Positions 8,699 to 32,534 of a stretch of DNA of 34,372 bases are shown here, piece by piece. The notes under the pieces were generated by a model. It saw only the letters and a list, made by a program, of their open reading frames with translations. It was not told the origin of the DNA and searched no databases. Numbering within the stretch: the stretch's first letter is position 1; each line of letters starts with the position of its first letter. The DNA comes from Planctomycetota bacterium (lineage in GTDB: Bacteria; Planctomycetota; SZUA-567; H5-PLA8): assembly GCA_045863855.1 (NCBI GenBank), contig BTVV01000063.1, forward strand, positions 1 through 34,372, given 5' to 3'. A program made the translations under genes and the position numbers.

Positions 8699-8712
8699 CT
8701 TCCAACGATTCC

Positions 8713-15488: not shown

Positions 15489-18400
15489 GTGGCCGAAGCA
15501 TCCGAATTCAGCCGCGCGAACCCCTCCACCCGACGCCGGCTTTTCGGCGCGGTGGCGGTGATGAAGGGCTATTGCACCCAGTCCCAGCTCGACGAATGCC
15601 TCGACGCCCAGGGCAAGCTGGGCGAGATGGGGTTGCCCGAAAAAATCGGCGAGATCCTGGTCAAGAAGGCCTACCTCACCCGCGAACAGCTCGCCGAAGT
15701 GCTCAAAGACATCCAAGGCAATCCCACACTTGCAGGTTTCGAGATTCTCGAAAAAGTCGGGCAAGGCGCGATGGGCGCGGTCTTCAAAGCACGCCAGATC
15801 TCGATGCACCGCATTGTGGCTCTTAAAATCCTGCCCAAAAAGCTGAGCGCCAATGCGGTCCAAAAAGAGCGCTTCTTGCGCGGCGCCAAAATGGCCGCCC
15901 GCCTCAATCATCCGCATATCGTCGGCGCCATCGATATCGGCGAGTCCGGGCCGTACACCTACTTCGCCATGGAATTCGTCGAAGGCCGCTCGACACGCGA
16001 CGTGGTCAAGGAGCGCGGAAAGTACGGGCTGCAGGAAGGGCTCGAACTGATCCGCCAGATCAGCGAGGCGCTGAAGTATGCGCACGGGCAGGGCCTGATC
16101 CATCGCGACATAAAGCCCGACAACGTGATGCTCAACACACGAAATGAGGCGAAACTCTGCGATTTGGGGTTGGCCCGGCCGGCCGAACTGGAAGACGACG
16201 ATGCCGAACTCACCATGGCCGGAAAGGCCATCGGCACGCCGCACTACATGTCGCCCGAACAAGCCAAAGGCGCTCGGGACATCGACCACCGCGTCGACCT
16301 CTATGCGTTGGGCGCCACCATCTATTACCTGTTTGGCGCACGAACCCTTTTCGCCGGCGAAAACCCATCGCTGATCATGTCGAAACATCTTACCGAGTCG
16401 GCGCCGGCGCTGAACGAAGTGAATCCGGAAGTTCCGGCCGAACTGGCCCTGATGGTCTCGAAGTTATTGGCCAAAGATCCGAACGATCGCTACCCCGACG
16501 CCGGCGCCTTTTTGGCCGATCTGGATCGCCTTAAAAAGGGCGAACAAATCGAGGCGGCCGCATTCAACCGGCCCAGTTCGGCGGCGCAGCCCAAGCTGGC
16601 CGCGCGAAGCGGCAAACGCAAAGCGGTGAATGCCGGAGGCACCACCGGCCCCCGTGTGCCCGTAGGCCCCAAGGGCACTACCGGTCCGCGCGTGCCCGTC
16701 GGACCTCGCCACACCACCGGCCCTGTCGGCGCGATCGGACCCATCCGCGTCACCACCGGGCCGGTCACCGCGGTGCGCCCCCCCGTGCGGGGAACCGCGC
16801 GTGCCGGCGACGAACGCAAAAAGTCCAACGGAACCGTCCTGGCGGTCACCGTCGCCGGCGGCGTGGGCCTCGCGCTCCTCTTAGTTCTGCTGATGCTAGG
16901 TGGATCGCCCAAAGAGGCTGCTCAACAACCCAAACCTCCCGCCCAGCCCTTGCCGCCACCCAAATCGGCGCCCATCGTTCAGGAACCTCCGGCGACTCGG
17001 CCGGCCGCTAAAACGGAAGTCAAAAACTCCGAGCCGCCGGCCGCGCCGGTTCCGACCGAGCCCGTACCTTCGCCGCAACCGGTCGCGGCGCCCGCGGATC
17101 AGCCGCCAGTTCCACCGCAAGAGCCCGCTCCGGCTCAAGTCGAGCCTGCGCCCCAGCCCGCGCCACCGGAACCCGCGCTTCCCGCGCTTCCCCAGCCCTC
17201 CGCGGTCGATCCCGCTCTCGTGGCGCTGCGCGCGCGTTTTCTGACCGAACTGCTTACGCTCACCGCCGACGACGACCTCGATAAAGCCCACCACAAGCTC
17301 CGTGCGCGAGCACGCACGCCGGAATTCGCACCGGCCGCCAAGCTGATCGAGCCCGATTTGAAAGAATTGGAAGCGGCGCACAAATTCGAGACGGCCGCGC
17401 TGGAAGCGCTCGCCAAGCAGGAAAAGGAACTCCCGCTCCCGGAAAAGCTCGCCAAAACCTTCGGCGCGGATAAGGCAAAAGTGAAAGCCTACGACGCCGC
17501 CCGCGGCATCGAAGTCGAAGTCAAAGGCGCAGGCCTGTACCTGACCGGCAAGCTGCTCGACGCGAAGCGCGTGGTGGCCGCGAGTGGCGCGGCGGGCGAT
17601 GGCCCGGAAGGCGCGCTCTATCTATTGATGCGTGGCGCACTCGACGAAGCGCGCGCGCGAATCCCGGCCTTGGCCGAAGAAGTGCGCGCGCCGCTCGCCG
17701 AGAAACTGGAACTTATGGGGGCCGGCGAAAAAGAAGTGCTCGCCCAGCAGTCGTTTGCGGCGCTCCAAAAGAGCCATGACCAGAAACAGTGGAAGACCCT
17801 GGCCGACGGCATCGACGCCTTCCGCGAAACCCACGGAGCGACCCGCTTCGCCCAACAAAAAGCGCCGGAGCTGGAGCAATGGCTGAAGGATATCGAAAAA
17901 GCGCTCATCGGAGAAAATCCGTGGAAGCGCATCTTCCACGCGAAAGAAGCCAAACCCCTGCCCAACGGCTTCGTCGAATTGGCCTACGACTTCAGCGACC
18001 CCGGCCAGCTTGCGGATTTCGAGGGCGTACCCGCCGCTCTCGTGCTGGAAAACGGAGCGCTCAAGATTCCCGCCGGACCGCCGCGCGACGAATTCTGCTT
18101 CGCGCGCTTCAAGGCCCCGATCGCGGAACTGCTGCGCTTCCATGCCGAAGGCCGCTCGCTCACCGGCCAAAAACGCGTGGGGCCCTACTTTCTGGAGCCC
18201 GGCAGCAACGACGGCGCACGAGCGCCCAGGCTCTTGATCCGGCCCTACAACCGAAGCCCGCATATCGAAAACTTCATGAGCGAAGCGGACATCAATCAGC
18301 CGTGCCCGAGGTTGATCGGAAAGCCCTTCGACATCACCCAGGACTTCGCACCCATTTCAGCATCTGTGGCGGACGGAAAATGGAGTTGGACCGTCGGCGC

Positions 18401-18560
18401 CGATCTCGTCGGCGTGGTGCAGATGCCCAAAACCCTGCCCGTCTATTTCCTGATCTTGAACGCCAACGCCGGCGAACATGCGTGGCGTAACTTAAAGCTC
18501 ACGATTCGCCCCGAAGCCGCTTGGGCAAAAGCGGAAATCGAAAAGGCCGCAAAGCCGTAA
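15489..18560 (+). CDS. Transmembrane Ser/Thr protein kinase with MshEN-like N-terminus and large extracytoplasmic region
   Basis: Likely GTG start 15489 (AAGGA SD). GQGAMG, VALK, HRDIKPDN, DLGLA, GTPHYMSPEQ; TTGP repeats; TM VLAVTVAGGVGLALLLVLLML; Pro-rich linker; helical stalk; C-terminal beta-rich domain. Confidence 0.93.
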   Translation: MAEASEFSRANPSTRRRLFGAVAVMKGYCTQSQLDECLDAQGKLGEMGLPEKIGEILVKKAYLTREQLAEVLKDIQGNPTLAGFEILEKVGQGAMGAVFKARQISMHRIVALKILPKKLSANAVQKERFLRGAKMAARLNHPHIVGAIDIGESGPYTYFAMEFVEGRSTRDVVKERGKYGLQEGLELIRQISEALKYAHGQGLIHRDIKPDNVMLNTRNEAKLCDLGLARPAELEDDDAELTMAGKAIGTPHYMSPEQAKGARDIDHRVDLYALGATIYYLFGARTLFAGENPSLIMSKHLTESAPALNEVNPEVPAELALMVSKLLAKDPNDRYPDAGAFLADLDRLKKGEQIEAAAFNRPSSAAQPKLAARSGKRKAVNAGGTTGPRVPVGPKGTTGPRVPVGPRHTTGPVGAIGPIRVTTGPVTAVRPPVRGTARAGDERKKSNGTVLAVTVAGGVGLALLLVLLMLGGSPKEAAQQPKPPAQPLPPPKSAPIVQEPPATRPAAKTEVKNSEPPAAPVPTEPVPSPQPVAAPADQPPVPPQEPAPAQVEPAPQPAPPEPALPALPQPSAVDPALVALRARFLTELLTLTADDDLDKAHHKLRARARTPEFAPAAKLIEPDLKELEAAHKFETAALEALAKQEKELPLPEKLAKTFGADKAKVKAYDAARGIEVEVKGAGLYLTGKLLDAKRVVAASGAAGDGPEGALYLLMRGALDEARARIPALAEEVRAPLAEKLELMGAGEKEVLAQQSFAALQKSHDQKQWKTLADGIDAFRETHGATRFAQQKAPELEQWLKDIEKALIGENPWKRIFHAKEAKPLPNGFVELAYDFSDPGQLADFEGVPAALVLENGALKIPAGPPRDEFCFARFKAPIAELLRFHAEGRSLTGQKRVGPYFLEPGSNDGARAPRLLIRPYNRSPHIENFMSEADINQPCPRLIGKPFDITQDFAPISASVADGKWSWTVGADLVGVVQMPKTLPVYFLILNANAGEHAWRNLKLTIRPEAAWAKAEIEKAAKP
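16638..16780 (+). repeat. Four in-frame TTGP-containing repeats (12-13 aa) in the kinase juxtamembrane linker
   Basis: GTTGPRVPVGPK GTTGPRVPVGPR HTTGPVGAIGPIR VTTGPVTAV; synonymous codon differences between copies. Confidence 0.85.
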
Positions 18561-18636
18561 TTTTGGGGCATCAACTTCGCCCTTCCGAATACGCGCCCAC
18601 CGGCTATTTGACGGCTGCGGCGGAGCATTCCAAACG

Positions 18637-19191
18637 ATGTTGAATCACGTGGCCATCCTGGTGCCCTCGGTACATCGATGCGCGCAGCGGCTTGCGGCGC
18701 TAGGGCATCACGTGGGCGAGATCGAAGCACAACCCGCCGATGGCTCGAAGGAAGTATACGTCGGCCCGCCGGAAGCGGAAGGCGCCCTGTTGCTCGTCGA
18801 ACCCGTGGGGCCAGGGCCGTTCGAACGCGCACAGCGCAAACGCGGATTCGGGCTGCATCACGTCGCCATCGACGTGGACGATCCGGCGCAATACGCAGTC
18901 GAGATGGGCAAGTCAGGCTGGCTTTTGCATCCGAAAAGCATCGCTTACTTCGCACTAAACAAGACGCTCTTTTTGGCCAGACCCGGAGTATGCACTCTGG
19001 TGGAAGTCCAAGCAAAGCGCGCGATGAGCGGTCTGGCGCAAAAGTTCGTCACGGGCGTAGGGATTCGATGCGCACCCGAGTCGATGCATCTGGTTCACGC
19101 ATTGGGTGAGCCCGAGCTTCATGCCGTCCAAGGCGAGGCGGCTCTTGAGATTTGCGGCCATCCGCTGGCGCTCGACCTTTTGTCGAAATAG
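18637..19191 (+). CDS. VOC / glyoxalase family protein (methylmalonyl-CoA epimerase-like)
   Basis: LNHVAILV, LLLVEP.GPGP, GLHHVAIDVDD, TLVEVQ metal-binding motifs. Confidence 0.8.
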   Translation: MLNHVAILVPSVHRCAQRLAALGHHVGEIEAQPADGSKEVYVGPPEAEGALLLVEPVGPGPFERAQRKRGFGLHHVAIDVDDPAQYAVEMGKSGWLLHPKSIAYFALNKTLFLARPGVCTLVEVQAKRAMSGLAQKFVTGVGIRCAPESMHLVHALGEPELHAVQGEAALEICGHPLALDLLSK

Positions 19192-19429
19192 CCCCGCTTC
19201 GGCCGAATTGCTCAGAGCATCGATCTGCTTTACCCTCTACCCAAAGCAAAGAATAATTCGGTGCTGCTCATGTGCGATTTCACCGAATACGCGCCGAATG
19301 CGGCTGCAAATTCGAACGCACCGGCGTCATGCTATTAAGCGATACGTTGAAGATCGCGCTCGCTGCGCTACAACGGTCACGTCTGCGATTCGGCCGGCTC
19401 ACGGTTTCGGTCCACGAGATCCGCACCCC

Positions 19430-19840
19430 ATGAAGTTTTTCTTCTGCGAAAAGTGCGGGAAACGCCTCACCGACGCGGACGTGTCCGGCGGACAAGCGCG
19501 CGACAAGAAGCTCAAGGGCGTCTTCTGCAGCGATTGCTCCGTAGGCATCCTCACCATGGAACACGCGGCGCTCACCGAAGACGAAGCGCGCGTGGTGCTC
19601 ACCCGCGGCGCCGGCAAGGCCGCCGATCCGGCGGAAGCGGACAAGGCCTCCGCGCCCGCTCAGGCGGGACTGAAGTTCTTCTTCTGCGAAAAATGCGGCG
19701 CACGTTTGACCGACCGCGAGATCGCCGGCGGCCAGGCCAAGGATAAGAAGCTCCGAGGCGTCTTCTGCACGCCTTGCTCCGAAGGCGTACTGACGATGGA
19801 AACCATGCCGATGACGCAGGAGCAGGCGCGCGAGATGATC
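19430..19840 (+). repeat. Tandem duplication of a ~57-aa zinc-finger unit, 240 nt apart
   Basis: KFFFCEKCGKRLTDADVSGGQARDKKLKGVFCSDCSVGILTME (19430) versus KFFFCEKCGARLTDREIAGGQAKDKKLRGVFCTPCSEGVLTME (19670). Confidence 0.92.
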
Positions 19841-22540
19841 GCGTCCCATGCCGCCTCCGCGCCAAAACGGCAAAGCTCCGAGCAGAATATCTCCATCGCC
19901 GAACTCAAGAAGCGTAAGGGCAAGCCCTCGTCCAAACTCCGCGCCGGTCGAACCGATGGCGCGCCAAGAGCAGAACGGACCGACCGCGCAGCCTCAGGCA
20001 AGGGCTCGGCGGGCGTGGTTTACCTTTTGATCGGCGTGGCGGTGGCTCTGGTGCTCGGAGTGCTCCTGGTCGGTTCGGGAGGCGGCGGGCACACGGTAAC
20101 GGCCAAAAACAAATCCGGCGAGAGCGCCTCTGATTCGTCTGCGCCCCCCGCCCAGCTGCCTTCGCCCGTGCGAGCCGTCGAAACCGTGCCCCGGAATCCT
20201 CCCGACTCCAGGCAAGACGATCGGGAGGCGGAGGCGGCGCGAATGGCGCGAACCGAACTTCCAGATGCACCCGAAGCACCCGATGCGCCCGCGGCGGCGC
20301 AGCCCGCGGCGGAAGACCTCCCGGCCTGGTTCAAGGGTTTTAAAGCGGTCGGAGGAAATATCGAAGCCGACCAGAAGCATGCGGATCGCGACAACTCCCT
20401 TCAACTCACCGGTGCGGCCGACAAGAAGCCCGGGATCGTGGGCGTGGAAGGCTCTTTGCGCGTTCCCGAGGGGAAGCGCTGGCTGCGCCTGGCCATCCGC
20501 ACCGGCCGGACGCAAGCCCGTTTGGTGATCCGGGTGAACGGCGCGAAGTGGGTCGATGATCCCGTGACCGTGGGAGACTTCTCGGTCGCCTTCCTGGATC
20601 TCGAGGCGTTTTCCGGAAAAGAGATCGGAGTGGCCTGGGGCGTGTTGTACCTCGAAGATTCGGGCCGCACGCGTATCTGGCAGCCGCTTTTCGAATCTGC
20701 CGTGCCCGCCGGAATCGTGCCGCGCAAGGGACCGCTCGCAGACGAGGCCGTGGCGTCCGTTGCTCCCGTGGCCGAACCGAAGCCCGCCGCACCGCAAGCC
20801 TCCCAACCGGCCGCCTACGTCCGCTTTCAACGCGGTTTCGTCGAACGACTCCGTGCCGGAGACACCGCCGCGGCCCGGAAAGCCTTCGACGCCGCGGTGC
20901 AGGATGCCGCGCTCAAGAGCATGTCCGAGCGCGTCGCGCGGCATGCCCTCGCGCTGCAATGGCTCGAGGACCTGGATCGAGCGGTCATTTTGGGCGCCGA
21001 AAAGTTAAAAGAGGTCGATCTGATCGAACTGAAAATGAAGATCGGCAAGCCCATGAAGGTGGGCAAGCGTACGGAATACCAGATCCTCTCCTTTAAGGAC
21101 GGCGCCTTTCAGGTCGGAACCAAGCAGATGTCGATGGCATTGAAACTCGACAGTCTGCATCCGGAGATGCTGGCTCAGTTGCGCGAGTCGGGCCTCGGCG
21201 ATGACGGCGCCGGTTGGATGCGCCGCGCGTTTGCACGATTCCTAAGCTTGAGCGATCCGGAGGCCGACCTCACTCCCGTCTCCGAATGGCTCGAAAAGGC
21301 GCGCAATCTGAAGGCCCCGACCGAAGAACTCGCGTACCTGGCCGATCTGCTGGAAACCGAACGAGCCGAACGCGCCGCGGTCAGCGCCTTCGCGAAACTC
21401 ATGGAATTCTTCGAGACCAGCCAGTGGCGTGCATACCAGCAGGCCTTTGCCGATTTCAAGGCCGCGCACGCGAATTCGCTTACGGCCTTCGAAAAACTGC
21501 CCGAATTGGAAGCACGGCTAACGAAAGCCGCCGCCGAATCGATGGAGCCGTTCAAGTCCCCGCTAAAAGGCCCCGAGGACTTCGACTGGGAGGCCTATGG
21601 GCACGCTTCCGGCGACAAGATGGTCCAATTCACCGATCGCCGCCTGAAGGGCCGCGACGATTTGCAGTACCTCGTCTGGACCCACGCCTCGGCCCATGTG
21701 CAGCGTGACGCGCCGCAAGGTATCCCGTTCAACAACGGAGCCGATTCGCATTTGCGCTTCGGGTTCGTCCGCGCGGTCCCGGTCTCGACCCTTGTCGCCA
21801 AAGCCATGACCTGTTCCTTCAGCGTCCTGAAACCCGACGCGCCGTACCCGGGCGACGTGAAAAATGAAGGGCATTGGTTGCCCGCACGGCCCATCGCCGA
21901 CGACGACCAGACCGTCTTCACCTTGCCGCCCGGTACCACGACGCGCGCGTTGCGCGTCTCCAACAAGGACGGCAAACAGGCCTGGTTCTTTGGCGTCCGC
22001 ATCTTCGCGGGGCTCTACACCAATGTCGCGCGCGGCGTGAAAACCAGCAGCAACTTCGAACAGGACAAAACGAATCGGCTCGTCAACGGCATCTCGGAAA
22101 CGGGCGGAGAATTCTTCGAATCGAAAGGCTGGGACAACGGCGACCAAGGTACGCCCGAAAACGTCAGCGATAAAAACCAAGCCATCGTCATGCTCTACTG
22201 GGATAAACCGGTACAGGCTCAAGCGCTGCTGCTCAACAACCCCGGCTTCGACCACGCCGAGATTTATACCTACAGCGGGCCCAATTCGGTGCGGTCCACC
22301 GCGGGCTCCTGGAAGCACTGGGGCCGCGTCGATTGCCACATTCAGTTTCCGCGCGCATTCCCGCTCCTCACCAAAGATCTCGGTAAGCCCGTCGAGATCA
22401 CCGGCCTGCGCCTGGTCATCCCCAAGCCTTTCTACGAACCGCGCATCCATCCCAACACCGCCAACGGACGCTGCTGCGGAGGCAAGCGGGTCTGGCTCGA
22501 CGAAGTCATCCTGCTGGGTCCGGTCTTGCCCGGGCTTTGA
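19430..22540 (+). CDS. Single-pass membrane protein with tandem N-terminal Cys4 zinc fingers and extracytoplasmic beta-sandwich (discoidin/CBM-like) domains
   Basis: Start ATG 19430 (MKFFFCEKCGKRL); the ORF-track extension overlaps the VOC gene. Two CxxC-x23-CxxC units, TM GVVYLLIGVAVALVLGVLLV, Pro/Ala linker, stalk, C-terminal NVARG..RLVNG..W..IVMLYWDKPV..ITGLRLVI..WLDEV pattern resembling the F5/8 fold. Confidence 0.85.
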   Translation: MKFFFCEKCGKRLTDADVSGGQARDKKLKGVFCSDCSVGILTMEHAALTEDEARVVLTRGAGKAADPAEADKASAPAQAGLKFFFCEKCGARLTDREIAGGQAKDKKLRGVFCTPCSEGVLTMETMPMTQEQAREMIASHAASAPKRQSSEQNISIAELKKRKGKPSSKLRAGRTDGAPRAERTDRAASGKGSAGVVYLLIGVAVALVLGVLLVGSGGGGHTVTAKNKSGESASDSSAPPAQLPSPVRAVETVPRNPPDSRQDDREAEAARMARTELPDAPEAPDAPAAAQPAAEDLPAWFKGFKAVGGNIEADQKHADRDNSLQLTGAADKKPGIVGVEGSLRVPEGKRWLRLAIRTGRTQARLVIRVNGAKWVDDPVTVGDFSVAFLDLEAFSGKEIGVAWGVLYLEDSGRTRIWQPLFESAVPAGIVPRKGPLADEAVASVAPVAEPKPAAPQASQPAAYVRFQRGFVERLRAGDTAAARKAFDAAVQDAALKSMSERVARHALALQWLEDLDRAVILGAEKLKEVDLIELKMKIGKPMKVGKRTEYQILSFKDGAFQVGTKQMSMALKLDSLHPEMLAQLRESGLGDDGAGWMRRAFARFLSLSDPEADLTPVSEWLEKARNLKAPTEELAYLADLLETERAERAAVSAFAKLMEFFETSQWRAYQQAFADFKAAHANSLTAFEKLPELEARLTKAAAESMEPFKSPLKGPEDFDWEAYGHASGDKMVQFTDRRLKGRDDLQYLVWTHASAHVQRDAPQGIPFNNGADSHLRFGFVRAVPVSTLVAKAMTCSFSVLKPDAPYPGDVKNEGHWLPARPIADDDQTVFTLPPGTTTRALRVSNKDGKQAWFFGVRIFAGLYTNVARGVKTSSNFEQDKTNRLVNGISETGGEFFESKGWDNGDQGTPENVSDKNQAIVMLYWDKPVQAQALLLNNPGFDHAEIYTYSGPNSVRSTAGSWKHWGRVDCHIQFPRAFPLLTKDLGKPVEITGLRLVIPKPFYEPRIHPNTANGRCCGGKRVWLDEVILLGPVLPGL

Positions 22541-22549
22541 CGCCCCATT

Positions 22550-22657
22550 CAGGTATACATCAAGTACAAAATTCCATGATTATCATGTAAGTATATAATT
22601 ATAATGTGTTTATAAGTTAAATCTAATCTTAAAAATGTTATACCTGATACATACCTG
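22550..22657. promoter_or_regulatory. AT-rich promoter flanked by two inverted 20-bp candidate operators
   Basis: Reverse complement of 22550-22569 (TTGTACTTGATGTATACCTG) matches 22638-22657 (TTATACCTGATACATACCTG) at 16/20; tandem TATAAT at 22594 and 22600 lie between them. Confidence 0.6.
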
Positions 22658-22673
22658 CGGTGTATGCGCAAGT

Positions 22674-23765
22674 ATGATGAAGATCCAGCGCTCAGGCTCC
22701 CTGCCCTGCTATCGCCAAGTCGAAGCCTGGCTGAGAACCGAGATCGAATCCGGCCGGCTCCTTCCCGACGCGGCCGTCCCCGAAGAGCGGGAACTCGCCA
22801 AACGCATGGGCCTGAGCCGTATGACCGTGCGCCGCGCCCTCGTCACGCTCACCGACGAAGGACTGCTCTACCGCATCCGCGGGCGCGGAACCTACGTCAA
22901 AGCCTCGGCGGCCCCGGCCGTACGCGCTCTGGATACGGTGGGAATCGTGGCGCCCTTCGGGCAGTCCGAATTGCGCGAAAGCTTCTTTTATTACCGCATC
23001 ATGGAAGGGCTGCAGTCGGCCACCGGCGCCTACGGCTTGGCGCTGGTCTATCGCCCGCTGGCCGCGCCGTTCGCGGCCTTCGCCGACACGCTGGTTCGAG
23101 AATCGAGCGCGCGAGCGTTGGTTGCGTTGGGCATCGTGGATCCCGAAGTCCTCGGCGCCCTGGCCGCCCAAAACGTTCCGCTGATCCTGGTGGACAGCAG
23201 CCAGCCGCCCGGTCCGCACCCTTGCGATGCCGTGACACACGAAGGCCGTCTCAGCGCCGAACAGGCGGTGCGCCACTTACTCGAACGCGGGCATCGCAAG
23301 ATCGGACTCTTGACCTACGGGCCCACCCCGGCTTCCTCAGCCCGCGAAGCCGGTTACCGCCTCGCCATGGCCAGCCGCAGGGTCGAACTCCGGCCCGAAT
23401 GGATCGTCTACGCCGAATGCAACGGCGCCGCGGCCTACGCCGCCGCGCGCAGCATGCTGCGCGAACCGGATCCCGTCACCGCTTTGTTCTGCACCACCGA
23501 CGAGATGGCCATGGGCGCCATCGCCGCCGCGAAAGATCACGGCTGGCAAGTGCCGCGCGACCTGAGCGTCATCGGCTTCGGGGATCTGGGATACTTCTGC
23601 CAGCCCGCGCTCTCCTCGGTGCGCATGCCCCTCGAAGAGATGGGCCGCAAGGCCGCGGAACTCCTGCGCGCGCGGATCGACGATCCTGCCGCCGCGCCCG
23701 TCACCGCGTGCTTCCCGTCCGAATTCGTGGCCCGCGCCAGCACCGATTTTCCGCGCGCCGGTTGA
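22674..23765 (+). CDS. GntR-type wHTH / LacI-type sugar-binding domain transcriptional regulator (AraR-like architecture)
   Basis: Start ATG 22674/22677. PEERELAKRMGLSRMTVRRAL..L..EGLLYRIRGRGTYV (GntR HTH) then HLLERGHRKIG, TALFCTTDEMAMGA, VPRDLSVIGFGD, PALSSVR (LacI/GalR effector domain). Confidence 0.92.
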   Translation: MMKIQRSGSLPCYRQVEAWLRTEIESGRLLPDAAVPEERELAKRMGLSRMTVRRALVTLTDEGLLYRIRGRGTYVKASAAPAVRALDTVGIVAPFGQSELRESFFYYRIMEGLQSATGAYGLALVYRPLAAPFAAFADTLVRESSARALVALGIVDPEVLGALAAQNVPLILVDSSQPPGPHPCDAVTHEGRLSAEQAVRHLLERGHRKIGLLTYGPTPASSAREAGYRLAMASRRVELRPEWIVYAECNGAAAYAAARSMLREPDPVTALFCTTDEMAMGAIAAAKDHGWQVPRDLSVIGFGDLGYFCQPALSSVRMPLEEMGRKAAELLRARIDDPAAAPVTACFPSEFVARASTDFPRAG

Positions 23766-23807
23766 CCGCCCTGGGAATCGCCGGCGCCTGACCGAAAGGA
23801 TCTGAAC

Positions 23808-26573
23808 ATGAAACGACCGTGCCTCGTTCTCCTGGCCTTGGCCCTGCTCGCTTGTGCGAGCGCGCTACAGGCCGGCGAATCGCCGCTCATCGCCGGCGAC
23901 TTCGAATCCGGCTCGCCCAAACCGTTCGACGGCAAAGGCGGCGCGCAGATCGTCTCCGAACACGCCGCGCAAGGCGCCAAAGCCCTCAAACTCCCCGCCG
24001 GCGCATGGCAGCACGCCGATCCGGCTTCGGGATTGCCCGCGGATTGGTCGGCATTCGATCTGGTCAAGTTCGAGGTTTTCAACCCGGACGCAAAGACCGT
24101 CAAACTGGTCCTCCAGCTTCGCGACGCCAAAGACCAGGGCTACTGGTCCTGGCATAATCGCTACGTGGCGCTCCTGCCGGGCGCCAACACCGTTCAATTC
24201 GCCGTGGCCGATCTTTGGCGCGGCGAGATCCTGCGCAACGACATGGGCGGTTCCCTCGATCCGCGCGCCATCACGGCCTTGAACCTCCTCGCCGAAGGCG
24301 ACGTGGTGCTCGACGCCTTGCGCCTCGAACGTTTCGCCGCGCCGAAGGTCGACGTACCCGGCCTGCGCGCTTACAAGATCGGACCCGCCGCCGCGCCCGG
24401 CTTCCCGGGCTTCGTAAAGCTGAACGAAAAAGATCTCTACCGAAAAGAGTCCGGCGTCGGCTGGCTCAAAGCCGGGTTCATGCGCCTCGAGGACCGCAAG
24501 CACCCGGACAACCTTTACCGCTCGTACCTCTCCTGCAGCGACGCCGAACTGGCCGTCGATCTGCCCAACGGAAGCTATCGTGTGCATCTCCAGCTCGAAG
24601 ACGCGGGCTACTGGGAGTTCATGCAGCATTACACGCGCCGCGAAGTCCTCGCCGAAGGCCGGACGGTCCTCGACGAATCCATGAACGCGGAAGAATTCCA
24701 GCGCCGTTACTTTCGCCATCAAGATGCCGACGACCTTCCGGGCGAGGATCCGTTCGACAAGTACGTCGAGCCGCGCTTCCCGTGGCGAACCTTCGATGCC
24801 GAGGTCAAAGACGGCCAGCTCAATCTCCAGTTCCGTTCACCAGACATGTACGGAAATACGCTCTCCGCCGTCGTCCTCTACCCCGCCGAGCACGCCACGC
24901 AAGGCGAGGCCTTCTTGAAATACGTCAAGGAACTGCGGCGCTTCGATTGGGCGCAGCGCTGGAAACCCGTCTCCAAACCTCCCGCACTACCCGTGTTCGC
25001 GGGGCAAGCCGCGCAAGCGGCCGTCCGCGACGGCTTCGTCCTGTACCGAACCTCCCCCTATGCGGGCGGCGACGACGTTCAAACCTACGACCACGTGCCC
25101 GCCGAGGCCGAACTCCTCGACCGTCTCGATGCCGCGGCGGCCCAAGGCGAAAGCGAACCGGCCTCCTTTGCGCTGCGGCCCGCCAAACCCCTCGGCAAAC
25201 TGGACGTCACGCTCTCGCCCCTCGTCAATGCCCAAGGCCGGGCCTTGCCCGAAAGCGCCTGTTCGATCTGGACCGGGCGCTACCGCTTCACGCGCCATCA
25301 GGGCCATCAGTCGGGTCTCTACGCGCTATGCGAACGCGAGTTGCGCCCCTTCAATCGCACTCCCGCCGATACGCTGACCTCCGATCACGGGCTCGCTCGG
25401 CGCTTCTGGATCCATGTGGCCGTGCCCGCCGACGCCATCCCGGGCACGTATACCGCCACACTGACCGTCAAAGCCGAACACGGCGGAACCCGCGCCCTCC
25501 CCTTTCAGCTCCGCGTCCTTCCCTTTGCCCTGCCCGATCCCGGGCATCTTTTCACCCTCTACGGAATCGAGATCATGCCTCCGGCCTACTACCCGCGGCC
25601 GCCGGCGGAACGCTTGGCGCAGCGCGAAGCCGTGTACCGCGATCTGCGCGATCACGGCATCAATTACATCAAGGATCTGAACGTCAAAACCGCCTGGAAG
25701 GACGGCAAGGCCTCCGTCGCCAACGCGGCCGAAATCGCAGAAGAACTCGCACTGCGCAAGCGCCTGGGATTCCTGTCCGGCCCCGTGGACGCCCCCGGCG
25801 GAGCATCGCTCGACGAACTCGCCGGCGGCGGTGCCATCAAAGGCATGCCGCGCGAACAATTCATCGCCGCATGGCACCTGGAACTGACCCGCTACTTCCA
25901 AGCCCAGGACTGGCCCAAGCCGTTCTTCTGCTACGGGGACGAACCGAACCTCGCGGAAACCCTGAACAAGCTCGTCGCCGTCAACCAAGCCGTGCACGCC
26001 GTCTCGCCCGACATCTGGATGGGCATCGCCTACCACACGCAAAGCCCCGAAAGCTACGCGCTCCTCGACTCCCTCGACGTCCACCACCTGAAGGATTTCT
26101 GCAAGGTCGAGGACTTTGCGCGCGCCAAAAAGGCCGGGAAGTTCCTGCTCAACTGCAACGTCGGCAGCCACCGCGCCGCCTACGGACTGCGCGCATGGCG
26201 CGCCATGCACGAACGCCGCACCGACGGCCTGATCACCTATTCCTACACCGGAAACCATGTCGATCCGTACTACGACCTCGACGCCCGCGAAGGCGACTTC
26301 CTGCTCGCCCCGCCGCGCGCCGACGGCACCTTCGTCACCACCGCGCGCTGGGAACGCATCCGCGAAGGCATCGACGACTTCCGCTACGCCCGGGCGCTCG
26401 AAGCCCTCGCCCGCCGCGCGCAAACCTCCTCCGATCAGCGCGCCGCCGCCGAGAAGCTCCTCGCTCAAGCCCTGGAGATCGGCGCCGTAGCCCAACTGGA
26501 TCAAGCCCACCGCCAAGCCGAGGCGTGGCGCACCCTGGCGCAGGAAATCCTGGCCCAGGCCGCCAAGCCCTGA
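23808..26573 (+). CDS. Secreted multidomain putative glycoside hydrolase (GH123/DUF4091-like)
   Basis: Signal peptide MKRPCLVLLALALLACASALQA; CBM-like LPADWSAFDLVKFEVFNP; AQGESEPASFAL; WIHVAVPADAIPGTYTATL..LRVLPFALP; YGDEP; RWERIREGIDDFRY. Confidence 0.8.
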   Translation: MKRPCLVLLALALLACASALQAGESPLIAGDFESGSPKPFDGKGGAQIVSEHAAQGAKALKLPAGAWQHADPASGLPADWSAFDLVKFEVFNPDAKTVKLVLQLRDAKDQGYWSWHNRYVALLPGANTVQFAVADLWRGEILRNDMGGSLDPRAITALNLLAEGDVVLDALRLERFAAPKVDVPGLRAYKIGPAAAPGFPGFVKLNEKDLYRKESGVGWLKAGFMRLEDRKHPDNLYRSYLSCSDAELAVDLPNGSYRVHLQLEDAGYWEFMQHYTRREVLAEGRTVLDESMNAEEFQRRYFRHQDADDLPGEDPFDKYVEPRFPWRTFDAEVKDGQLNLQFRSPDMYGNTLSAVVLYPAEHATQGEAFLKYVKELRRFDWAQRWKPVSKPPALPVFAGQAAQAAVRDGFVLYRTSPYAGGDDVQTYDHVPAEAELLDRLDAAAAQGESEPASFALRPAKPLGKLDVTLSPLVNAQGRALPESACSIWTGRYRFTRHQGHQSGLYALCERELRPFNRTPADTLTSDHGLARRFWIHVAVPADAIPGTYTATLTVKAEHGGTRALPFQLRVLPFALPDPGHLFTLYGIEIMPPAYYPRPPAERLAQREAVYRDLRDHGINYIKDLNVKTAWKDGKASVANAAEIAEELALRKRLGFLSGPVDAPGGASLDELAGGGAIKGMPREQFIAAWHLELTRYFQAQDWPKPFFCYGDEPNLAETLNKLVAVNQAVHAVSPDIWMGIAYHTQSPESYALLDSLDVHHLKDFCKVEDFARAKKAGKFLLNCNVGSHRAAYGLRAWRAMHERRTDGLITYSYTGNHVDPYYDLDAREGDFLLAPPRADGTFVTTARWERIREGIDDFRYARALEALARRAQTSSDQRAAAEKLLAQALEIGAVAQLDQAHRQAEAWRTLAQEILAQAAKP

Positions 26574-26611
26574 AAAAGAAGCGGGCGGCTCCTTCAGGGG
26601 CCGCCCGCTTT
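26574..26611. terminator. Bidirectional intrinsic terminator
   Basis: AAAAAG-AAGCGGGCGGCTCC-TTCA-GGGGCCGCCCGCTT-T between convergent genes. Confidence 0.85.
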
Positions 26612-26636
26612 ACGAAGTCGAAAGACCTTCCCGCCG

Positions 26637-27461
26637 TCAATGCGCCAGCGTCTTGACCGCCTTGCGCTGAGCGGCGCTCGCTTCCTGCCAGGCCTTGTGA
26701 ACCTGCGTCGGATCGCCGTACTCGTTCCCCGCCAGATCCCGGCCCCGGGCCAGGTAAATCTGGTGCAGGCGGTTCCCGCCGGCGCCCGCTTCGAACTTCG
26801 ACGAAGCCGGCGCGTAGCGCATCGTGTACCCGCAGCGCCGCTGCGTGCTCGTGTTGAAGTTCGAACCGTGAATCGTCTTGGCGTGGTGGAACGAGCACGT
26901 GTTGGGCTTCAGCACGCAATCCACCGCCGCGGCTTCGTTGAACCGGCCGCGCTTGATCTCCGTCCCGAAAACGTGCTTCTCCGGCTGCGCCACCGGGTCG
27001 TATTCCGAATACCCGTTCCGGCTCGTCCCGGGGATCACCCGCATGCAGCCGTTCTCCGTCGTCGCCGGATCGATCGCCAGCCAGATCGTCACCACCTCCA
27101 TCGGATCCAGCCGCTTGCCCCAGTACGCGCTGTCTTCGTGCCATGGCACCCGCTTGCCCGTTCCCGCAGGCTTGCAGATGAAGTGCGACGACCAGAGCAT
27201 GATGTCCGGCCCGATCAGCGATTCGACCAGATCCAGCACGCTGTCGTCCAGCAGCCACTTGAACAGTTCGATATCCGTGAAGTGCGGCACGTCCATATGT
27301 TCCGGCGTCTTCCCCGACGTCGCTTCCCAAAGCACCAGTTGCTCCTCGAAATGCGCCTTCAGCGCATCGAACTTCGACTGCGGAAAAACGGGCTCATCGT
27401 AGAGCAGATAGCCTTCGCGTTTGTAGAAGGCTGCTTGTTCGGGACTGAGTCGGCCGGCCAT
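26637..27461 (-). CDS. Phytanoyl-CoA dioxygenase (PhyH) family Fe(II)/2-oxoglutarate dioxygenase
   Basis: FYKREGYL, FICKPAG, PWHEDSAYW (HxD), TIWLAIDPATTENGCMRVIPG, HHAKTIHGS, RRCGYTMRY. Confidence 0.92.
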   Translation of the reverse strand: MAGRLSPEQAAFYKREGYLLYDEPVFPQSKFDALKAHFEEQLVLWEATSGKTPEHMDVPHFTDIELFKWLLDDSVLDLVESLIGPDIMLWSSHFICKPAGTGKRVPWHEDSAYWGKRLDPMEVVTIWLAIDPATTENGCMRVIPGTSRNGYSEYDPVAQPEKHVFGTEIKRGRFNEAAAVDCVLKPNTCSFHHAKTIHGSNFNTSTQRRCGYTMRYAPASSKFEAGAGGNRLHQIYLARGRDLAGNEYGDPTQVHKAWQEASAAQRKAVKTLAH

Positions 27462-27559
27462 GGGTGGTCTCCCAAAGGGTTGCGTACGTTCGATACATGC
27501 AAGATAGTTCCACGGAAGTGACTTTTCTTCTTATGGAATGACATTATTCTTGTACTTTA

Positions 27560-28453
27560 ATGACATCGGCCCCTGACGTCCCCAAGCTGCGCATCGCGAA
27601 GTTCGTCCCCCGCGAGGCCCACTACCACGTTGCCCGCCACACCCGCGGGCCGGGGCACGCCACCGGCGAACATACCCACGACTTCCCCGAACTCCTCTGG
27701 CTGGAACGCGGGCGCGCGATCCACCAGATCAACGGACAGCCCAAGGAACTCCGACCCGGCGACCTCGTCTTGATCCGCCCGCCCGACCGCCACGGCTTCC
27801 GCGCGCCCGCCGTGCGCCAGGGCGATACGGCCTTCGTCATGGTCAACGTCGCCTTCCGCAACGCCACGCTCCTGCATCTGCGCAAGCGCTACTACGCCGG
27901 ACGAGCGGAGGCTTTTCCCTGGCGCGGCGCCCAACTCCCCGCCCGCTTCCGCATGGGCGCAGACGATCTCCGCCGCCTCGCCGACGCCGCCGAACGCCTG
28001 GCTCACGGACCGCAATCGCGACTGCGGCTCGAACACTTTCTCCTCGAAGTCCTCGAAAGCATCGAACGCACCGCGCCCGTGGGTTCCGAACAGCCCTCCG
28101 ACCTCCCCGATTGGCTGCGCGGAGCGCTCGCCGTCTTCGCCCAGCCCAAGCACCTCCCCGGAGGCGTGCGCGAACTGGCGCGCTTGGCCGGGCGCGGCCC
28201 CGAACACATCAACCGCGTCATCCGCCGAGGCCTGGGCCAGACGAGCACCGACCTCGTCAACCGCTTGCGCCTCGAGTACGCCGCGCGCGAACTGGCCATG
28301 TCCGGTAAGCCCATCGTCGATATCGCGCTCGATGCCGGCTTCGATAACCTGAGCTACTTTTACCGTCTCTTTCAGCGCCGCTTTGGGCATACGCCGCGGC
28401 AATTCAGGCTTCAAGGACCGCTTCCTACCCACCAGACGGCGCCTAATCGATAA
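27560..28453 (+). CDS. AraC family transcriptional regulator with cupin domain (ChbR/RhaS-like)
   Basis: HTHDFPELLWLERG, PGDLVLIRPPDRH, LRLEYAAREL, IVDIALDAGFDNLSYFYRLFQRRFGHTPRQFR; divergent from the PhyH gene. Confidence 0.93.
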   Translation: MTSAPDVPKLRIAKFVPREAHYHVARHTRGPGHATGEHTHDFPELLWLERGRAIHQINGQPKELRPGDLVLIRPPDRHGFRAPAVRQGDTAFVMVNVAFRNATLLHLRKRYYAGRAEAFPWRGAQLPARFRMGADDLRRLADAAERLAHGPQSRLRLEHFLLEVLESIERTAPVGSEQPSDLPDWLRGALAVFAQPKHLPGGVRELARLAGRGPEHINRVIRRGLGQTSTDLVNRLRLEYAARELAMSGKPIVDIALDAGFDNLSYFYRLFQRRFGHTPRQFRLQGPLPTHQTAPNR

Positions 28454-28604
28454 TGTAACTCATTGATATAAATGATATTACAAGAACGCGCCGAATCGTT
28501 CACATACCGGCCAGATTTCTGCACCCAGAGCACCCCCGTTTCACGACTATCCTGTAAGGGCACATGGTGCCGCGAGAAATCACAGGCAGCGGGAGGACGG
28601 AAAG

Positions 28605-29339
28605 ATGCGGTATGCGCAAGGGTTGGGGCTGCTCGCCGGAGTCGCACTGGCCGTATCGGGGCTGAGCGCCGAAGAGGACGATTGGGAGATTCCGAAAGCG
28701 AAACCCGAAGTACGCCACGAAGGCGATAAGGGCGAACGCCCCGAACACGCCGAAAAGGGCGAACGCGGCGAACACGCCGAAAAGGGCGAACGCGGCGGGA
28801 TGGGCGAGAAGGAACGCGGCGAAAAGGGCGAGATGGGCGAAAAAGGCGAGCGCCCGGCCGGAGGCCCCGCGGACTTCGCCGGCTTTAGCGGCCGCGTCGC
28901 CGGCGTTGTGCTCGATAAGAAGGAAGGCTTCATCAAGTTCAAGGTCGAGCACGTCAAGGAAGTCTGGAAGGACAACCGCGCGGCCAACCCCCAAGCCCTG
29001 GCCGGCCAGACCATCGTCGTAGGCGCGGCCAAGAACCAGTACGTGCAGACCTTCATCAACCGAGTGATGGAATCGAATAACCAATACTATCTGGAAATCA
29101 GCCACTTAAATGGCGAGGTCTTCAAGATCTCCGAGCTGAACGAAGAACAGCGCGCGGCCGTTAAGCACATCGTCGGCGGCGAAGGCGGCTTCAAGCGTGA
29201 AGGCGACAAGCGTGAAGGCGACAAGCGCGAAGGCGAGAAACACGAAGCCGAGAAGCGCGAAGCCGAAAAACGCGAGGCCATGCGGCGTGAAGCCGAAAAG
29301 CGTGAGGCCGAAAAGCGCGAAGGTGTCGACCGGCGCTAA
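28605..29339 (+). CDS. Secreted protein with charged G-E-K/R repeats and KREA/GE pentapeptide repeats
   Basis: GGAGG SD, signal peptide MRYAQGLGLLAGVALAVSGLSA, low-complexity repeats flanking a ~100-aa globular core (FAGFSGRVAGVV...VWKDNRAANPQALAG). Confidence 0.8.
   Translation: MRYAQGLGLLAGVALAVSGLSAEEDDWEIPKAKPEVRHEGDKGERPEHAEKGERGEHAEKGERGGMGEKERGEKGEMGEKGERPAGGPADFAGFSGRVAGVVLDKKEGFIKFKVEHVKEVWKDNRAANPQALAGQTIVVGAAKNQYVQTFINRVMESNNQYYLEISHLNGEVFKISELNEEQRAAVKHIVGGEGGFKREGDKREGDKREGEKHEAEKREAEKREAMRREAEKREAEKREGVDRR
28728..28796 (+). repeat. 27-nt coding tandem repeat (KGERxEHAE)
   Basis: AAGGGCGAACGC(CC/GG)CGAACACGCCGAA, about 2.5 copies. Confidence 0.85.
29193..29327 (+). repeat. 15-nt coding tandem repeat, nine copies (KREGD/KREAE)
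   Basis: KREGD KREGD KREGE KHEAE KREAE KREAM RREAE KREAE KREGV. Confidence 0.88.
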
Positions 29340-29459
29340 GATGTTTCCCATACGCCGCGGAGGGTGCCCACGCGCCCTCCGCGGCGGTTCGATTCGGATC
29401 GCAACAACCCGTTCCCACCCTCCGCTCTTTCCGCAAGCGGCAACCCGAGGCGAGCGCAG

Positions 29460-32400
29460 ATGGCCGAAACCGGCACCTCACCCGCACCCAAGATCATCGG
29501 CGGATTCGAAATCGTCTCCAAGATCGGCAGCGGCGGCATGGGCTCGGTCTTCAAGGCCCGCCAGGTCTCCATGGACCGCCTCGTCGCGCTGAAAGTGCTG
29601 CCCCCTAAGTTCGCCGAAAAAGATCCACGCTTCGTCGAACGCTTCGTGCGCGAAGCCCGCGCTTCGGCCAAGCTCAACCACCCGCATATCGTCCAAGGCA
29701 TCGAAGTCGGCCGCGACGAGCGCAGCGGGCTGCACTACTTCGCCATGGAATTCGTCGACGGGTCCAGCGTTGGACAGTTGCTCAAGGCCGGTCCCATGGA
29801 GGAAAAGCGCGCGCTGGAAATCGCCCGGCAGGTCGCGCTGGCGCTCGACTGCGCCCACAAGGCCGGGATCGTGCATCGCGACATCAAGCCCGATAACATT
29901 CTCGTCACCCAGCAGGGCGTCACCAAACTCGCCGACCTGGGCTTGGCTAAAAAGATGGCCAGCGACGCCAGCCTCACCCAGTCGCTCCCTGCCATGGGCC
30001 CCGGAGCCAACGCCAACCTCACGCAGGCCGGCCAGACCGTCGGAACGCCCGATTACATGTCGCCCGAACAGGCCGAAGGCAAGGCCGACATCGACGTCCG
30101 CACCGACCTCTATTCGCTCGGCGGAACCCTCTACCACATGCTCGTCGGACGCGGACCGTACTCCGGCGGCACCGGCATGGAAGTCGTCATGCGCCACCTC
30201 ACCGCGCCGGTTCCGGACGCCGCGCGGGAGAATCCCAAAATCAGCCGGCAATGCGCCGATCTCGTCACCAAGCTCCTGCAGAAGGATCCCGCCAAGCGCT
30301 GCCAGACGCCGCTGGAGCTGATCGCGGAAATCGACGAGGTCATGGCCGCACACGCAGGCAAGACGCTGCGCTACGCCACCACCAGCGTCCAGCGCCCGGT
30401 CACCACCGGAGGCCTTAAACGCATCGGAGCCGGAACCACCGGCCCGCGCCGGCCCGTCGAAGACCGCGGCGCTCGCGGCGTCGGTCGAGCCGCGCGCCCC
30501 GAAGGAAACTCCTCCCAGGCCGTCACCATCGGCGCCATTGCCGGCGGAGCCGTCCTGCTGCTGGGACTCTTCTTCATGTTCAGCGGCGGCGGTGGCTCGA
30601 ACAAAACCGCCGAAACCAAATCCCGAACCAAGTCCGCGCCGGCCCAACAGCCCGCGCCCGCCGCCAACAAGACTCCCGCCCTCCCCGCGGTGGTCAAGAC
30701 CGACCCCGCCGCGCCCGAACCCGCGCCCGCCGCACAGCCCGCCGCGCCCGATCCGGCGCTATTGCTGGCTCGAGCGCGAACCGGCTGGACCCCCGCGGTT
30801 CAGAAGCTCGACGCCGCCGCCGCGCACGCGCAACTGGAAACCTTCGCCGCAGGACAGGGCCTGAACGAAGCCGCGCAGGAACCGCTTCAAGCCGCGCTCG
30901 TCGCCGATCTGCGCACCGCCTTCGACGCCTTCCGCACCGAGTTCACCGCGCAGATCGAACGCGGCGCGCTCGCCGAAGCGCGGGCGAAGCTCAACGCGTT
31001 TCCCGTTCCGCCGGCCGACAGCGCCTGGCCGCCCAACGTGGCCTTTACCGCCTTGCGCCAGCAATTCGAAGCGCAACTGGCCGCCGCCGAAGCCGCCGCG
31101 CAAACGCCGGCCGCCGCGCCCGCCGCCGCCGCGGCTTCCGGTCCCGCGCTGGATACGCTCTTCGCCCAGGCCGAACCGCAATTCGTGAACAACGCGCCGG
31201 CACGCGCGAAGCAGATCTTCGAAAGCGCCGCGAAGAAGCCCGAATGGGCCGCGCAGGCCCAGGCCCTCCAGGCTCAAGCCGAAGCCACCGCGTGGCTCGA
31301 CGACGTCAAAGCGGCGCTGGAACAAGGCGCCGCGAAGCTCGCCGACGGCAGGCCCCTTGAATTGGCGACCACGAAACGCCAGAAATTAAAGTTCGGCACC
31401 GGTGCGGAATTCGTTTTCGACAGCGTGGCGAACGGAAAGCTGCACGCGAAACTCAAAGGAGGGATGGTCCTCGGAGTCAACCTCGACGACCTCGATCCGC
31501 CTTCGCAGGACAAGCTCTTCGCACTCAACGTCCTGCCCACGCCCGAAGAAAACGCCGCGCTGGCCGTAAAACGCTCCTACGCGGACCTCGTGCGCATGCG
31601 CGCGCTGCCCGAGTTGGACGGTCCGTCGCTCTTCCAGATCCAGGAGCGCCTGGCGCTCTATAAGGAAGCCGGCGCGCCGCCCGAGGTCCACGCCGTCGCG
31701 CAAGCTTGGGCCGATTGGCGCGCGCGGCAAGCGCCACCGCCGGAAATGGCCCTCGATCTGGGCGGCGGCGTGACCCTCGAACTCGTCCTCGTACAGCCCG
31801 GCCGATTCAGCATGGGCACCGCCGCCTCGCCCGCCCCGCCCGGACATCCGCTCACCGCCCGCGTCGCGAAAGACGAACAACCCGCGCGCTCCGTCTTGAT
31901 TTCACGCCCGTTTTACCTCGGTAAATTCGAGGTCACTCAAGCGCAATACCGCCAGGTCATGGGCTCCAATCCCAGCTTCTTCGTCAACGATCGGGCGCCG
32001 GCCGATTCGGTCAGCGGGCAGGAAGCGGAAGCCTTCTGCGCCAAATGCTCGGAACTGACCAAGTTCCTCGTCACGCTGCCCACCGAAGCGCAATGGGAGT
32101 ACGCGGCCAAAGCTGGCGGCGCGGGCTGGATGATCCCCATCGGCGACCCGGCCTTCGGCGGCGACGCCGGAGCCTGGCAAGCCACCAACGAACGAGCCCT
32201 CGATGCGTGCGCCTGGTTCAAGGCCAACCTGTCCTGGGGCACCCGCCCGGTCGGCCAAAAAGCGCCCAACGCCTGGGGCCTTTACGACACCTTCGGCAAT
32301 GTGCTTGAGTGGTGTTCGGACCGCTACGCGCCCTACGACGCCCAAGCCACCACCGACCCGGTCGGCCCGGCGGCCGGCGACCTCATGACCGCCCGCGGCG

Positions 32401-32534
32401 GCACCGCCGTCAGCAACTTCGACCGCTGCCGGCCCGAATCCCGCAACGCGGTCCCGAAGACGCTCAAGAAAACAGGCTTCGGCCTCCGCATCTGCGTCCC
32501 CGTAGGCAACTCCGGCGCGCCGATCAAGAAATAA
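29460..32534 (+). CDS. Transmembrane Ser/Thr protein kinase with C-terminal FGE-sulfatase (SUMF1/C-type lectin fold) domain
   Basis: Start ATG 29460. GSGGMG, VALK, HRDIKPDN, DLGLA, GTPDYMSPEQ; TM IGAIAGGAVLLLGLFFMF; FSMG, FEVTQAQY, LPTEAQWEYAA, PNAWGLYDTFGNVLEWC, RGG...GLR FGE motifs. Confidence 0.94.
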   Translation: MAETGTSPAPKIIGGFEIVSKIGSGGMGSVFKARQVSMDRLVALKVLPPKFAEKDPRFVERFVREARASAKLNHPHIVQGIEVGRDERSGLHYFAMEFVDGSSVGQLLKAGPMEEKRALEIARQVALALDCAHKAGIVHRDIKPDNILVTQQGVTKLADLGLAKKMASDASLTQSLPAMGPGANANLTQAGQTVGTPDYMSPEQAEGKADIDVRTDLYSLGGTLYHMLVGRGPYSGGTGMEVVMRHLTAPVPDAARENPKISRQCADLVTKLLQKDPAKRCQTPLELIAEIDEVMAAHAGKTLRYATTSVQRPVTTGGLKRIGAGTTGPRRPVEDRGARGVGRAARPEGNSSQAVTIGAIAGGAVLLLGLFFMFSGGGGSNKTAETKSRTKSAPAQQPAPAANKTPALPAVVKTDPAAPEPAPAAQPAAPDPALLLARARTGWTPAVQKLDAAAAHAQLETFAAGQGLNEAAQEPLQAALVADLRTAFDAFRTEFTAQIERGALAEARAKLNAFPVPPADSAWPPNVAFTALRQQFEAQLAAAEAAAQTPAAAPAAAAASGPALDTLFAQAEPQFVNNAPARAKQIFESAAKKPEWAAQAQALQAQAEATAWLDDVKAALEQGAAKLADGRPLELATTKRQKLKFGTGAEFVFDSVANGKLHAKLKGGMVLGVNLDDLDPPSQDKLFALNVLPTPEENAALAVKRSYADLVRMRALPELDGPSLFQIQERLALYKEAGAPPEVHAVAQAWADWRARQAPPPEMALDLGGGVTLELVLVQPGRFSMGTAASPAPPGHPLTARVAKDEQPARSVLISRPFYLGKFEVTQAQYRQVMGSNPSFFVNDRAPADSVSGQEAEAFCAKCSELTKFLVTLPTEAQWEYAAKAGGAGWMIPIGDPAFGGDAGAWQATNERALDACAWFKANLSWGTRPVGQKAPNAWGLYDTFGNVLEWCSDRYAPYDAQATTDPVGPAAGDLMTARGGTAVSNFDRCRPESRNAVPKTLKKTGFGLRICVPVGNSGAPIKK

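Follow-up and report, generated by a model that had tools for sequence, protein, structure and literature searches.

Our analyses show that three membrane proteins encoded on one contig of a Planctomycetota bacterium (GenBank assembly GCA_045863855.1, contig BTVV01000063.1) share an ectodomain module of about 250 residues, carried by proteins that differ in both their predicted cytoplasmic heads and their distal domains. The whole contig of 34,372 nucleotides, hereafter the window, is contig C63 of a 6.9-Mb genome that is 94% complete (G000), and the three proteins are called A, B and C (Table 1). With a probability that we put at about 0.5, they are single-pass receptors built on one chassis, in which the module would be a scaffold, associated domains would sense glycans and the output would leave through either a kinase or a zinc finger. 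A preliminary description of the window had already proposed a receptor repertoire with a shared stalk, and both the three open reading frames (ORFs) and the stalk segments that it quoted are found where it placed them. The expanded family, the unnamed module, the exchanged heads and the varied outer domains are borne out by the module tree and by domain scans, but the heads are of two types and the module does not appear to be merely a spacer.

The similarity of the three stalks, suspected by eye, is true homology as judged by sequence profiles. Pairwise BLAST scores are weak (A-B, E 6e-4; B-C, 1e-4; A-C, none), and jackhmmer seeded with A or C alone failed to reach the module family. A word-indexed protein search yielded a single relative. 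Phmmer from B retrieves five paralogues elsewhere in the genome, and a hidden Markov model (HMM) of B plus these paralogues matches C at 4e-9 and A at 1e-7. A held-out HMM, built from 63 modules of other genomes only, matches B at 2e-58, A at 4e-39 and C at 4e-25, the best reversed-ORF control reaching 0.25; it finds 16 ORFs of the source genome under 1e-5. With a broader profile the number is 21 under 1e-6, of which one matches only in part, giving about 20 paralogues. Profile-profile comparison of disjoint clades (hhalign) gives 98.4% for A-B over 233 columns and 99.6% for B-C over 185, with a best control of 3.3% (15 per pair); the direct A-C value is just 28%, and A and C are connected through B. 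An artefact of Ala-rich helices, which the weak BLAST scores and the E values of 0.004-0.02 that designed helical repeats obtain with the module profile might suggest, is refuted by the held-out profile with its reversed control and the clade-to-clade comparison, as well as by a confident fold from 70 sequences, and its probability is negligible.

The module returned no family in Pfam, NCBIfam or PDB sequence searches; profile searches of the genome and its relatives gave many paralogues with varied outer domains, as expected for the stalk without a Pfam name that had been proposed. Searched with the first profile, all 16 other genomes of the host family contain the module, as do two of three more in the order and none of 15 genomes of a further family (f4), for which a second profile gave one of nine. 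Across the phylum, at least 74 of 301 genomes match, a lower bound because only eight candidates per genome were scored. A 50% cluster library holds 1,158 matches at E 0.001 and 463 at 1e-10; the best 150 of the 1,158 were inspected. Three unnamed ESM Atlas clusters at 0.91-0.92, whose commonest taxa are Planctomycetota and Verrucomicrobiota, are leads only.

To describe the architectures, we used 60 regions centred on the strongest matches in genomes other than G000 and G002, together with 40 centred on distant matches in the phylum, leaving out weaker module matches. These loci and G000 contain 126 module-bearing ORFs, or 109 complete ones once 17 touching a sequence end are dropped. A hydrophobic helix precedes the module in 106 of the 109, and A, B and C have one strong hydrophobic helix each. 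The order of head, linker, transmembrane (TM) helix, Pro/Ala linker and module described for the three proteins holds, except that B has an additional unnamed domain (residues 295-428) before the module, and that C adds helices ahead of a module without the last helical hairpin (profile positions 3-205 of 280); 12 of the 109 end the module early, as C does. The GTG start codon of A agrees with its orthologue P0104, which begins at the identical residue. Some module genes are split by a frameshift or stop (L073 and L045 in G001; L064 in G013), including the likely orthologue of C, and these may be assembly errors.

The heads of the complete ORFs are 75 kinases, one of them degenerate, 30 zinc fingers and one FHA domain, the remaining three being split genes, so that the suggested mix-and-match of heads holds as an exchange between essentially two types and not as a free set. 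On a FastTree phylogeny of 139 modules with long branches flagged (43 rows without a classifiable head, mostly N-terminally cut, and 42 near-duplicates were omitted), the head changes 17 times, six of these forced by starred branches, compared with a mean of 42.5 when heads are shuffled. Judging from this tree, kinase and zinc-finger heads have been exchanged at least six times. All 40 distant module proteins are headed by kinases (39) or FHA (one), in some cases preceded by zinc ribbons or MshEN-like repeats, and have a longer helical run between membrane and module. Fusions of finger and module therefore seem to be mainly an expansion of the host family and order, with one weak case outside them (L211). 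The third head type is represented by an FHA-headed single-pass protein with a module and a CAP domain (L157:3350-6502).

The finger that replaces the kinase has three invariant cysteines and a nearly invariant fourth, a pattern that suggests a treble clef. No curated family matches it above cut-off, its best PDB match being a LIM domain at E 0.012; Zn_ribbon_5 appears in one of 35 fingers at E 0.001, beside scattered weak matches to 25 families, and ESM Atlas matches, all under 0.9, are leads only. It occurs in 103 of 201 genomes of the phylum, often in single copy, with expansions in single genomes to 26, 24 and 13 matches. A TM helix is present in 27 of 28 sampled finger loci, the 28th running into masked bases. 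The source genome encodes 22 such finger membrane proteins, nine of them with the module, which is carried by only 10 of its 68 kinases. The system is thus wider than the module, and the finger, as a sequence signature, marks a wider class of single-pass proteins than the module bearers. In every one of the 15 host-family loci examined, a soluble FHA protein bears the same finger (two fingers in one locus), a domain fusion that suggests a tie between the finger and phosphothreonine signalling. Divergent from this FHA-finger gene lies one for an extremely acidic, low-complexity protein of 590 residues with a C-terminal hydrophobic helix (L249:4192-5964).

In the kinase arm, N-terminal Pkinase domains are recognized in A (E 1e-49) and C (E 3e-51) and none in B. 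The kinase of C has its motifs complete (Gly loop, VAxK, alphaC Glu, HRD, DxG and PE). The MshEN-like head attributed to A gave no match in the Pfam scan and is supported by jackhmmer, which links it to the window's own PilB-type proteins (that at 5657-6676, E 2e-7). The intact cyclic di-GMP binding motif of MshEN is of the RLG type; the repeats of the A head read LFG and KIG and thus depart from it. The source genome has 64-68 kinase-motif ORFs, about 15-16 with MshEN-like heads. The juxtamembrane linkers of the kinases contain TTGP(R/V) repeats (window 16641-16770 and 30390-30440), with four full copies in A, one in C and up to three in paralogues; a motif of this type precedes the membrane in 7 of 10 module kinases and 4 of 58 others. 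An N-in/C-out orientation is presumed for A, B and C. For kinases, the positive-inside count is 29 for, 14 against and 7 even.

By hand count, 52 of the 105 homologues scanned carry lectin-type or carbohydrate-binding module (CBM) Pfam domains, located N- or C-terminal to the module. They include LamG3, PA14, NPCBM, CBM_4_9, CBM96, DUF1080, FGE-sulfatase and C-type lectin domains; LRR, Kelch, FG-GAP, ILEI and CAP are further ectodomains. Of the distal domains named in the preliminary description, the FGE type of C is confirmed as FGE-sulfatase PF03781. The beta-sandwich of A could not be substantiated, with no Pfam match, nor could the discoidin-like part of B, with no match in Pfam or in PDB sequences. 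The distal domain of the A clade has partial matches in distant kinases. The second unnamed domain of B, of about 130 residues, moves between kinase- and finger-headed members (30 rows, some of them duplicates) and has weak CBM60 matches in two homologues.

The predicted structure of the complete module, made from an alignment of 70 sequences with a predicted local distance difference test (pLDDT) score of 96.5, consists of four helices, a five-stranded barrel and six further helices. Alone, the barrel has an Sm fold (Hfq/Sm: Z 6.2, root-mean-square deviation (rmsd) 2.4, 56 aligned) and, with the helix that follows it, the layout of SHD1 (2hbp: Z 4.3, rmsd 3.1, 56 aligned). By hhalign, pooled module alignments match 30 planctomycete SHD1 domains at 88-94%, over the last three strands of the barrel and the helix, with 30 controls at most at 0.76%; taken by clade, the value is 89% for C and 63% for B. 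SHD1 homology is therefore remote and, on these profiles, holds for the B and C clades. Unlike SHD1 itself, the module barrel lies below Pfam detection and is inserted between TPR-like helices; PF03983 is not among the 25 Pfam families shown for the 70 module members. The question raised earlier, whether the stalk matches a characterized family, has a divided answer: the whole module matches none, and its barrel is distantly related to one.

In the model, the helical hairpins of the last 110 residues resemble those of BamD (Z 6.7, rmsd 4.7, 112 aligned), and parts of the module match TPR-type arrays at Z 6-7.5 (Sti1, Z 7.5); TPR Pfam models match just 2 of the 70 members. No whole-module match stood out in structure comparisons, and Foldseek, given either the whole module or the barrel, returned none at E 0.001, which does not imply a novel fold. 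The module is, as modelled, an unnamed composite of known fold types. Almost all of its conserved columns hold Ala, Leu or Gly, the others being one Glu, one Trp, one Phe and one Thr; lacking a catalytic set, the module is unlikely to be an enzyme. Ring assembly and RNA binding, as in Hfq, also seem unlikely because the barrel is part of a membrane protein and is predicted to lie in the periplasm. A binding scaffold would be the most economical reading of the model. In yeast, SHD1 binds NPFxD peptides (PMC2199253), and SHD1 also occurs in extracellular bacterial proteins (PMC5906684), as far as the parts of these papers that we consulted report.

Under the receptor reading, the module would be a periplasmic protein-binding scaffold made of TPR-like helices around an SHD1-related barrel, and exchangeable lectin-type domains would sense glycans; according to the part of the source consulted, Planctomycetes accumulate dextran in the periplasm (PMC5394234). 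The signal would exit through a Ser/Thr kinase or a non-catalytic zinc finger. Clustering driven by ligand would lead the kinases to autophosphorylate their juxtamembrane TTGPR repeats, and FHA proteins would read the phosphorylated mark. The finger would offer a docking site to a common cytoplasmic partner, and finger-headed proteins could in this way signal into the same phosphothreonine network with no need of a fixed one-to-one pairing with a kinase.

Several results weigh against this receptor reading. About half of the homologues, A and B included, have no recognized sensor domain. The module is dispensable for the finger-headed class, 13 of the 22 finger-headed membrane proteins of the source genome being without it. 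The structural relationships are distant: the SHD1 comparison drops to 1% for the A clade, undetectable by itself, PF03983 has no match in G000 at E 0.01, and the BamD and Sti1 scores are at the level usual for any, even unrelated, helical bundle. In kinase A, Gly (codon GGC, 15882-15884) replaces the alphaC Glu, as in its G002 orthologue. The G001 orthologue keeps this Glu, as do 149 of 153 motif matches; A, counted twice, and P0104 account for three of the four exceptions. From kinase biochemistry, kinase A may be weakly active or a scaffold in its lineage. The TTGP counts are not independent, since the ten module kinases fall in one starred clade. For finger-headed proteins, the positive-inside count (32 for, 36 against, 17 even) leaves the topology unsupported.

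Alternatively, along the lines of the co-receptor suggested in the preliminary description, kinase- and finger-headed members might pair through the module, the kinase phosphorylating the Ser/Thr-rich linker of its partner. Gene order speaks for this hypothesis: three of nine finger-module genes lie within 3 kb of a kinase-module gene, far above chance (null mean 0.06; a count this high in 0 of 2000 permutations). A pair of this kind, separated by 3-4 nt or overlapping, recurs in four genomes belonging to three genera (G000, G004, G007 and G012). However, the conserved pair has a common ectodomain and, for G000, falls in one starred clade, like a tandem duplicate, and it sits inside a longer syntenic block. 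Finger-finger tandems also exist (G005, G006), no A-B adjacency is seen in the 20 kb surrounding the A orthologue in G001, a genome of the same genus, and none of the 40 distant module proteins has a finger head. The predicted complex of two B-module copies scored 0.00, which, with no controls folded, is evidence neither way. On balance, we consider pairing of the two arms unlikely and treat it as a hypothesis. The block around the conserved pair (L191:3490-12589, in G000 contig C40; also L187, L188 and L190) has, in conserved order in three genera, genes for a kinase-module protein, a finger-module protein, a CYTH-like protein, an M50-like protease and a second kinase; the CYTH and M50 labels are our presumption from motifs. 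Intramembrane proteolysis, which these neighbours suggested, was set aside because the flanking genes on both sides are equally syntenic.

A more ambitious proposal, which we also hold to be rather improbable, is a three-part system across the phylum, in which kinase receptors and kinase-less finger co-receptors, assembled by the module into combinatorial complexes, would sense glycans and a soluble FHA-finger adaptor would couple kinase phosphothreonine to the finger arm. In plants, receptor-like kinases and receptor-like proteins share ectodomain repertoires with and without a kinase. The three-part system, if true, would be a bacterial counterpart of such repertoires, by analogy only and not by homology.

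The finger proteins also have the layout of ZitP of Caulobacter (PMC5182063) and GltJ of Myxococcus (PMC11135422), bitopic proteins with an N-terminal cytoplasmic zinc domain and a flexible linker: a four-ligand zinc domain at the N-terminus, a linker and a single TM helix. They could be envelope-organizing anchors, the finger docking on a cytoplasmic scaffold, the outer part gripping peptidoglycan or outer-membrane complexes and the kinase versions regulating these sites. The frequent single-copy occurrence of the finger class fits this idea, as do the near-universal TM helix of the sampled loci, followed in many by mainly helical segments, and long Pro-rich linkers that could span the periplasm; the zinc ribbon of GltJ is a docking switch, according to the part of that report consulted. 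Yet the lineage-specific expansions and the many lectin-type domains fit a sensing repertoire better, and neither GYF nor DUF3426 turned up in Pfam scans. In the parts of those reports that we consulted, the zinc domains are ribbons, whereas the finger described here comes without a GYF domain and alternates with a kinase on one chassis. We regard anchors as quite unlikely.

As a passive rigid spacer, the module would lift sensors across an enlarged periplasm and the barrel would be merely structural. This agrees with its mostly helical make-up, its low and structural conservation, its position in distant relatives as the extension of a longer helical run starting near the membrane and, as the preliminary description implied, the usual presence of another domain after it. 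But no further domain follows the module in 11 of 109 library proteins, with kinase or finger heads. It ends 40 residues or fewer from the stop in 7 of 109 locus ORFs (one a split gene), is the only ectodomain seen in L088/P0111 and is duplicated in P0024, a kinase with two copies; terminal or sole positions amount to about a tenth of the proteins. The inserted barrel is moreover related to a peptide-binding family and kept across the phylum, and we find a purely passive role quite improbable.

Part of the chassis is familiar. Planctomycetota have kinase repertoires among the largest in bacteria, with single-pass Hanks kinases bearing shuffled periplasmic TPR, WD40, FGE-sulfatase and DUF1080 domains and about half of the kinases without an annotated partner domain, as reported in the consulted part of a survey (PMC11032199). 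A and C belong to this known kind, sharing the N-terminal kinase, single TM helix, shuffled periplasmic domains, lineage-specific expansion and the FGE and DUF1080 accessory families. The earlier suggestion of an undescribed system therefore does not extend to the shuffled kinases. That survey, in the part consulted, relied on Pfam domains, whereas the module has no Pfam model and a kinase-less chassis lies outside its scope; 'zinc' and 'SHD1' have 0 occurrences in its main text, and its supplementary tables may list some module kinases. No description of the module, of the finger class or of the FHA-finger protein was found in the open literature searched, supplements and subscription papers excluded. 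The module and the finger provide two apparently unnamed domain families with confident boundaries, the module in at least a quarter of the sampled genomes and the finger head in half, and a kinase replaceable on the same chassis by a non-catalytic finger. The conserved FHA-finger protein is a testable link between the two arms, and all components are small and probably soluble enough to be assayed for binding.

Table 1. Positions of the proteins and their parts, in the window unless another contig or locus is given
Feature	Position	Strand	Remarks
Protein A	15489..18560	+	MshEN-like head, Hanks kinase, Thr-rich linker, TM, Pro/Ala linker, module, unnamed distal domain
MshEN-like helical head of A	15531..15716	+	degenerate relative to cyclic di-GMP motif
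Kinase domain of A	15738..16493	+	Gly in place of alphaC Glu at 15882-15884
Predicted TM helix of A	16836..16892	+	residues 466-484 counted from 15441
Shared module in A	17202..17900	+	divergent, kinase-only clade
Unnamed distal domain of A, common to A clade	17916..18545	+	~210 residues
Protein B	19430..22540	+	two zinc fingers, basic Ser/Thr linker, TM, Pro/Ala linker, unnamed domain, module, unnamed distal region
Zinc finger 1 of B	19430..19564	+	CxxC...CxxC; putative treble clef, from pattern
Zinc finger 2 of B	19673..19804	+	
Predicted TM helix of B	20015..20071	+	residues 196-214
Second unnamed mobile domain in B	20312..20713	+	residues 295-428; in kinase- and finger-headed members
Shared module in B, complete form	20789..21538	+	model pLDDT 96.5
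Sm-fold, SHD1-related barrel and flanking helices within B module	20972..21199	+	
Distal region of B, unassigned	21545..22537	+	
Protein C	29460..32534	+	Hanks kinase, TM, Pro/Ala linker, helices, short module, FGE-sulfatase domain
Kinase domain of C	29505..30305	+	catalytic motifs intact
Predicted TM helix of C	30522..30578	+	residues 355-373
Shared module in C	31125..31745	+	short form without last hairpin
FGE-sulfatase domain PF03781 of C	31779..32492	+	
Conserved pair in G000	C40:3490-6861 with 6865-9477		
Soluble FHA-finger protein	L249:2698-3933 (G000 C11:81701-82978)	-	

The genes for A, B and C lie on the same strand and do not form one operon: a glyoxalase-like gene (18637-19191) stands between A and B, and C is 7 kb beyond. 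Promoter and terminator scans gave results at chance level. In RNA data, parts of A and B are covered by contigs of a close relative (identity of roughly 88-97%) from three runs belonging to two studies; with no silent control, this coverage does not establish transcription. Between B and C lies a sugar-use cluster (22635-28453) with a GntR/LacI-type regulator and a GH123-like secreted protein, as well as a PhyH-like dioxygenase and an AraC-type regulator, the last labels given by eye. Just upstream of C, 28605-29339 encodes a secreted-looking protein of 244 residues with charged GEK/EKREA repeats and no Pfam match. The reverse strand of positions 1-7751 carries, by eye, a cluster resembling type IV pilus or type II secretion systems (PilT-, MshEN-, PilB- and PilC-like) together with a histidine kinase that seems to carry a WD40 propeller.

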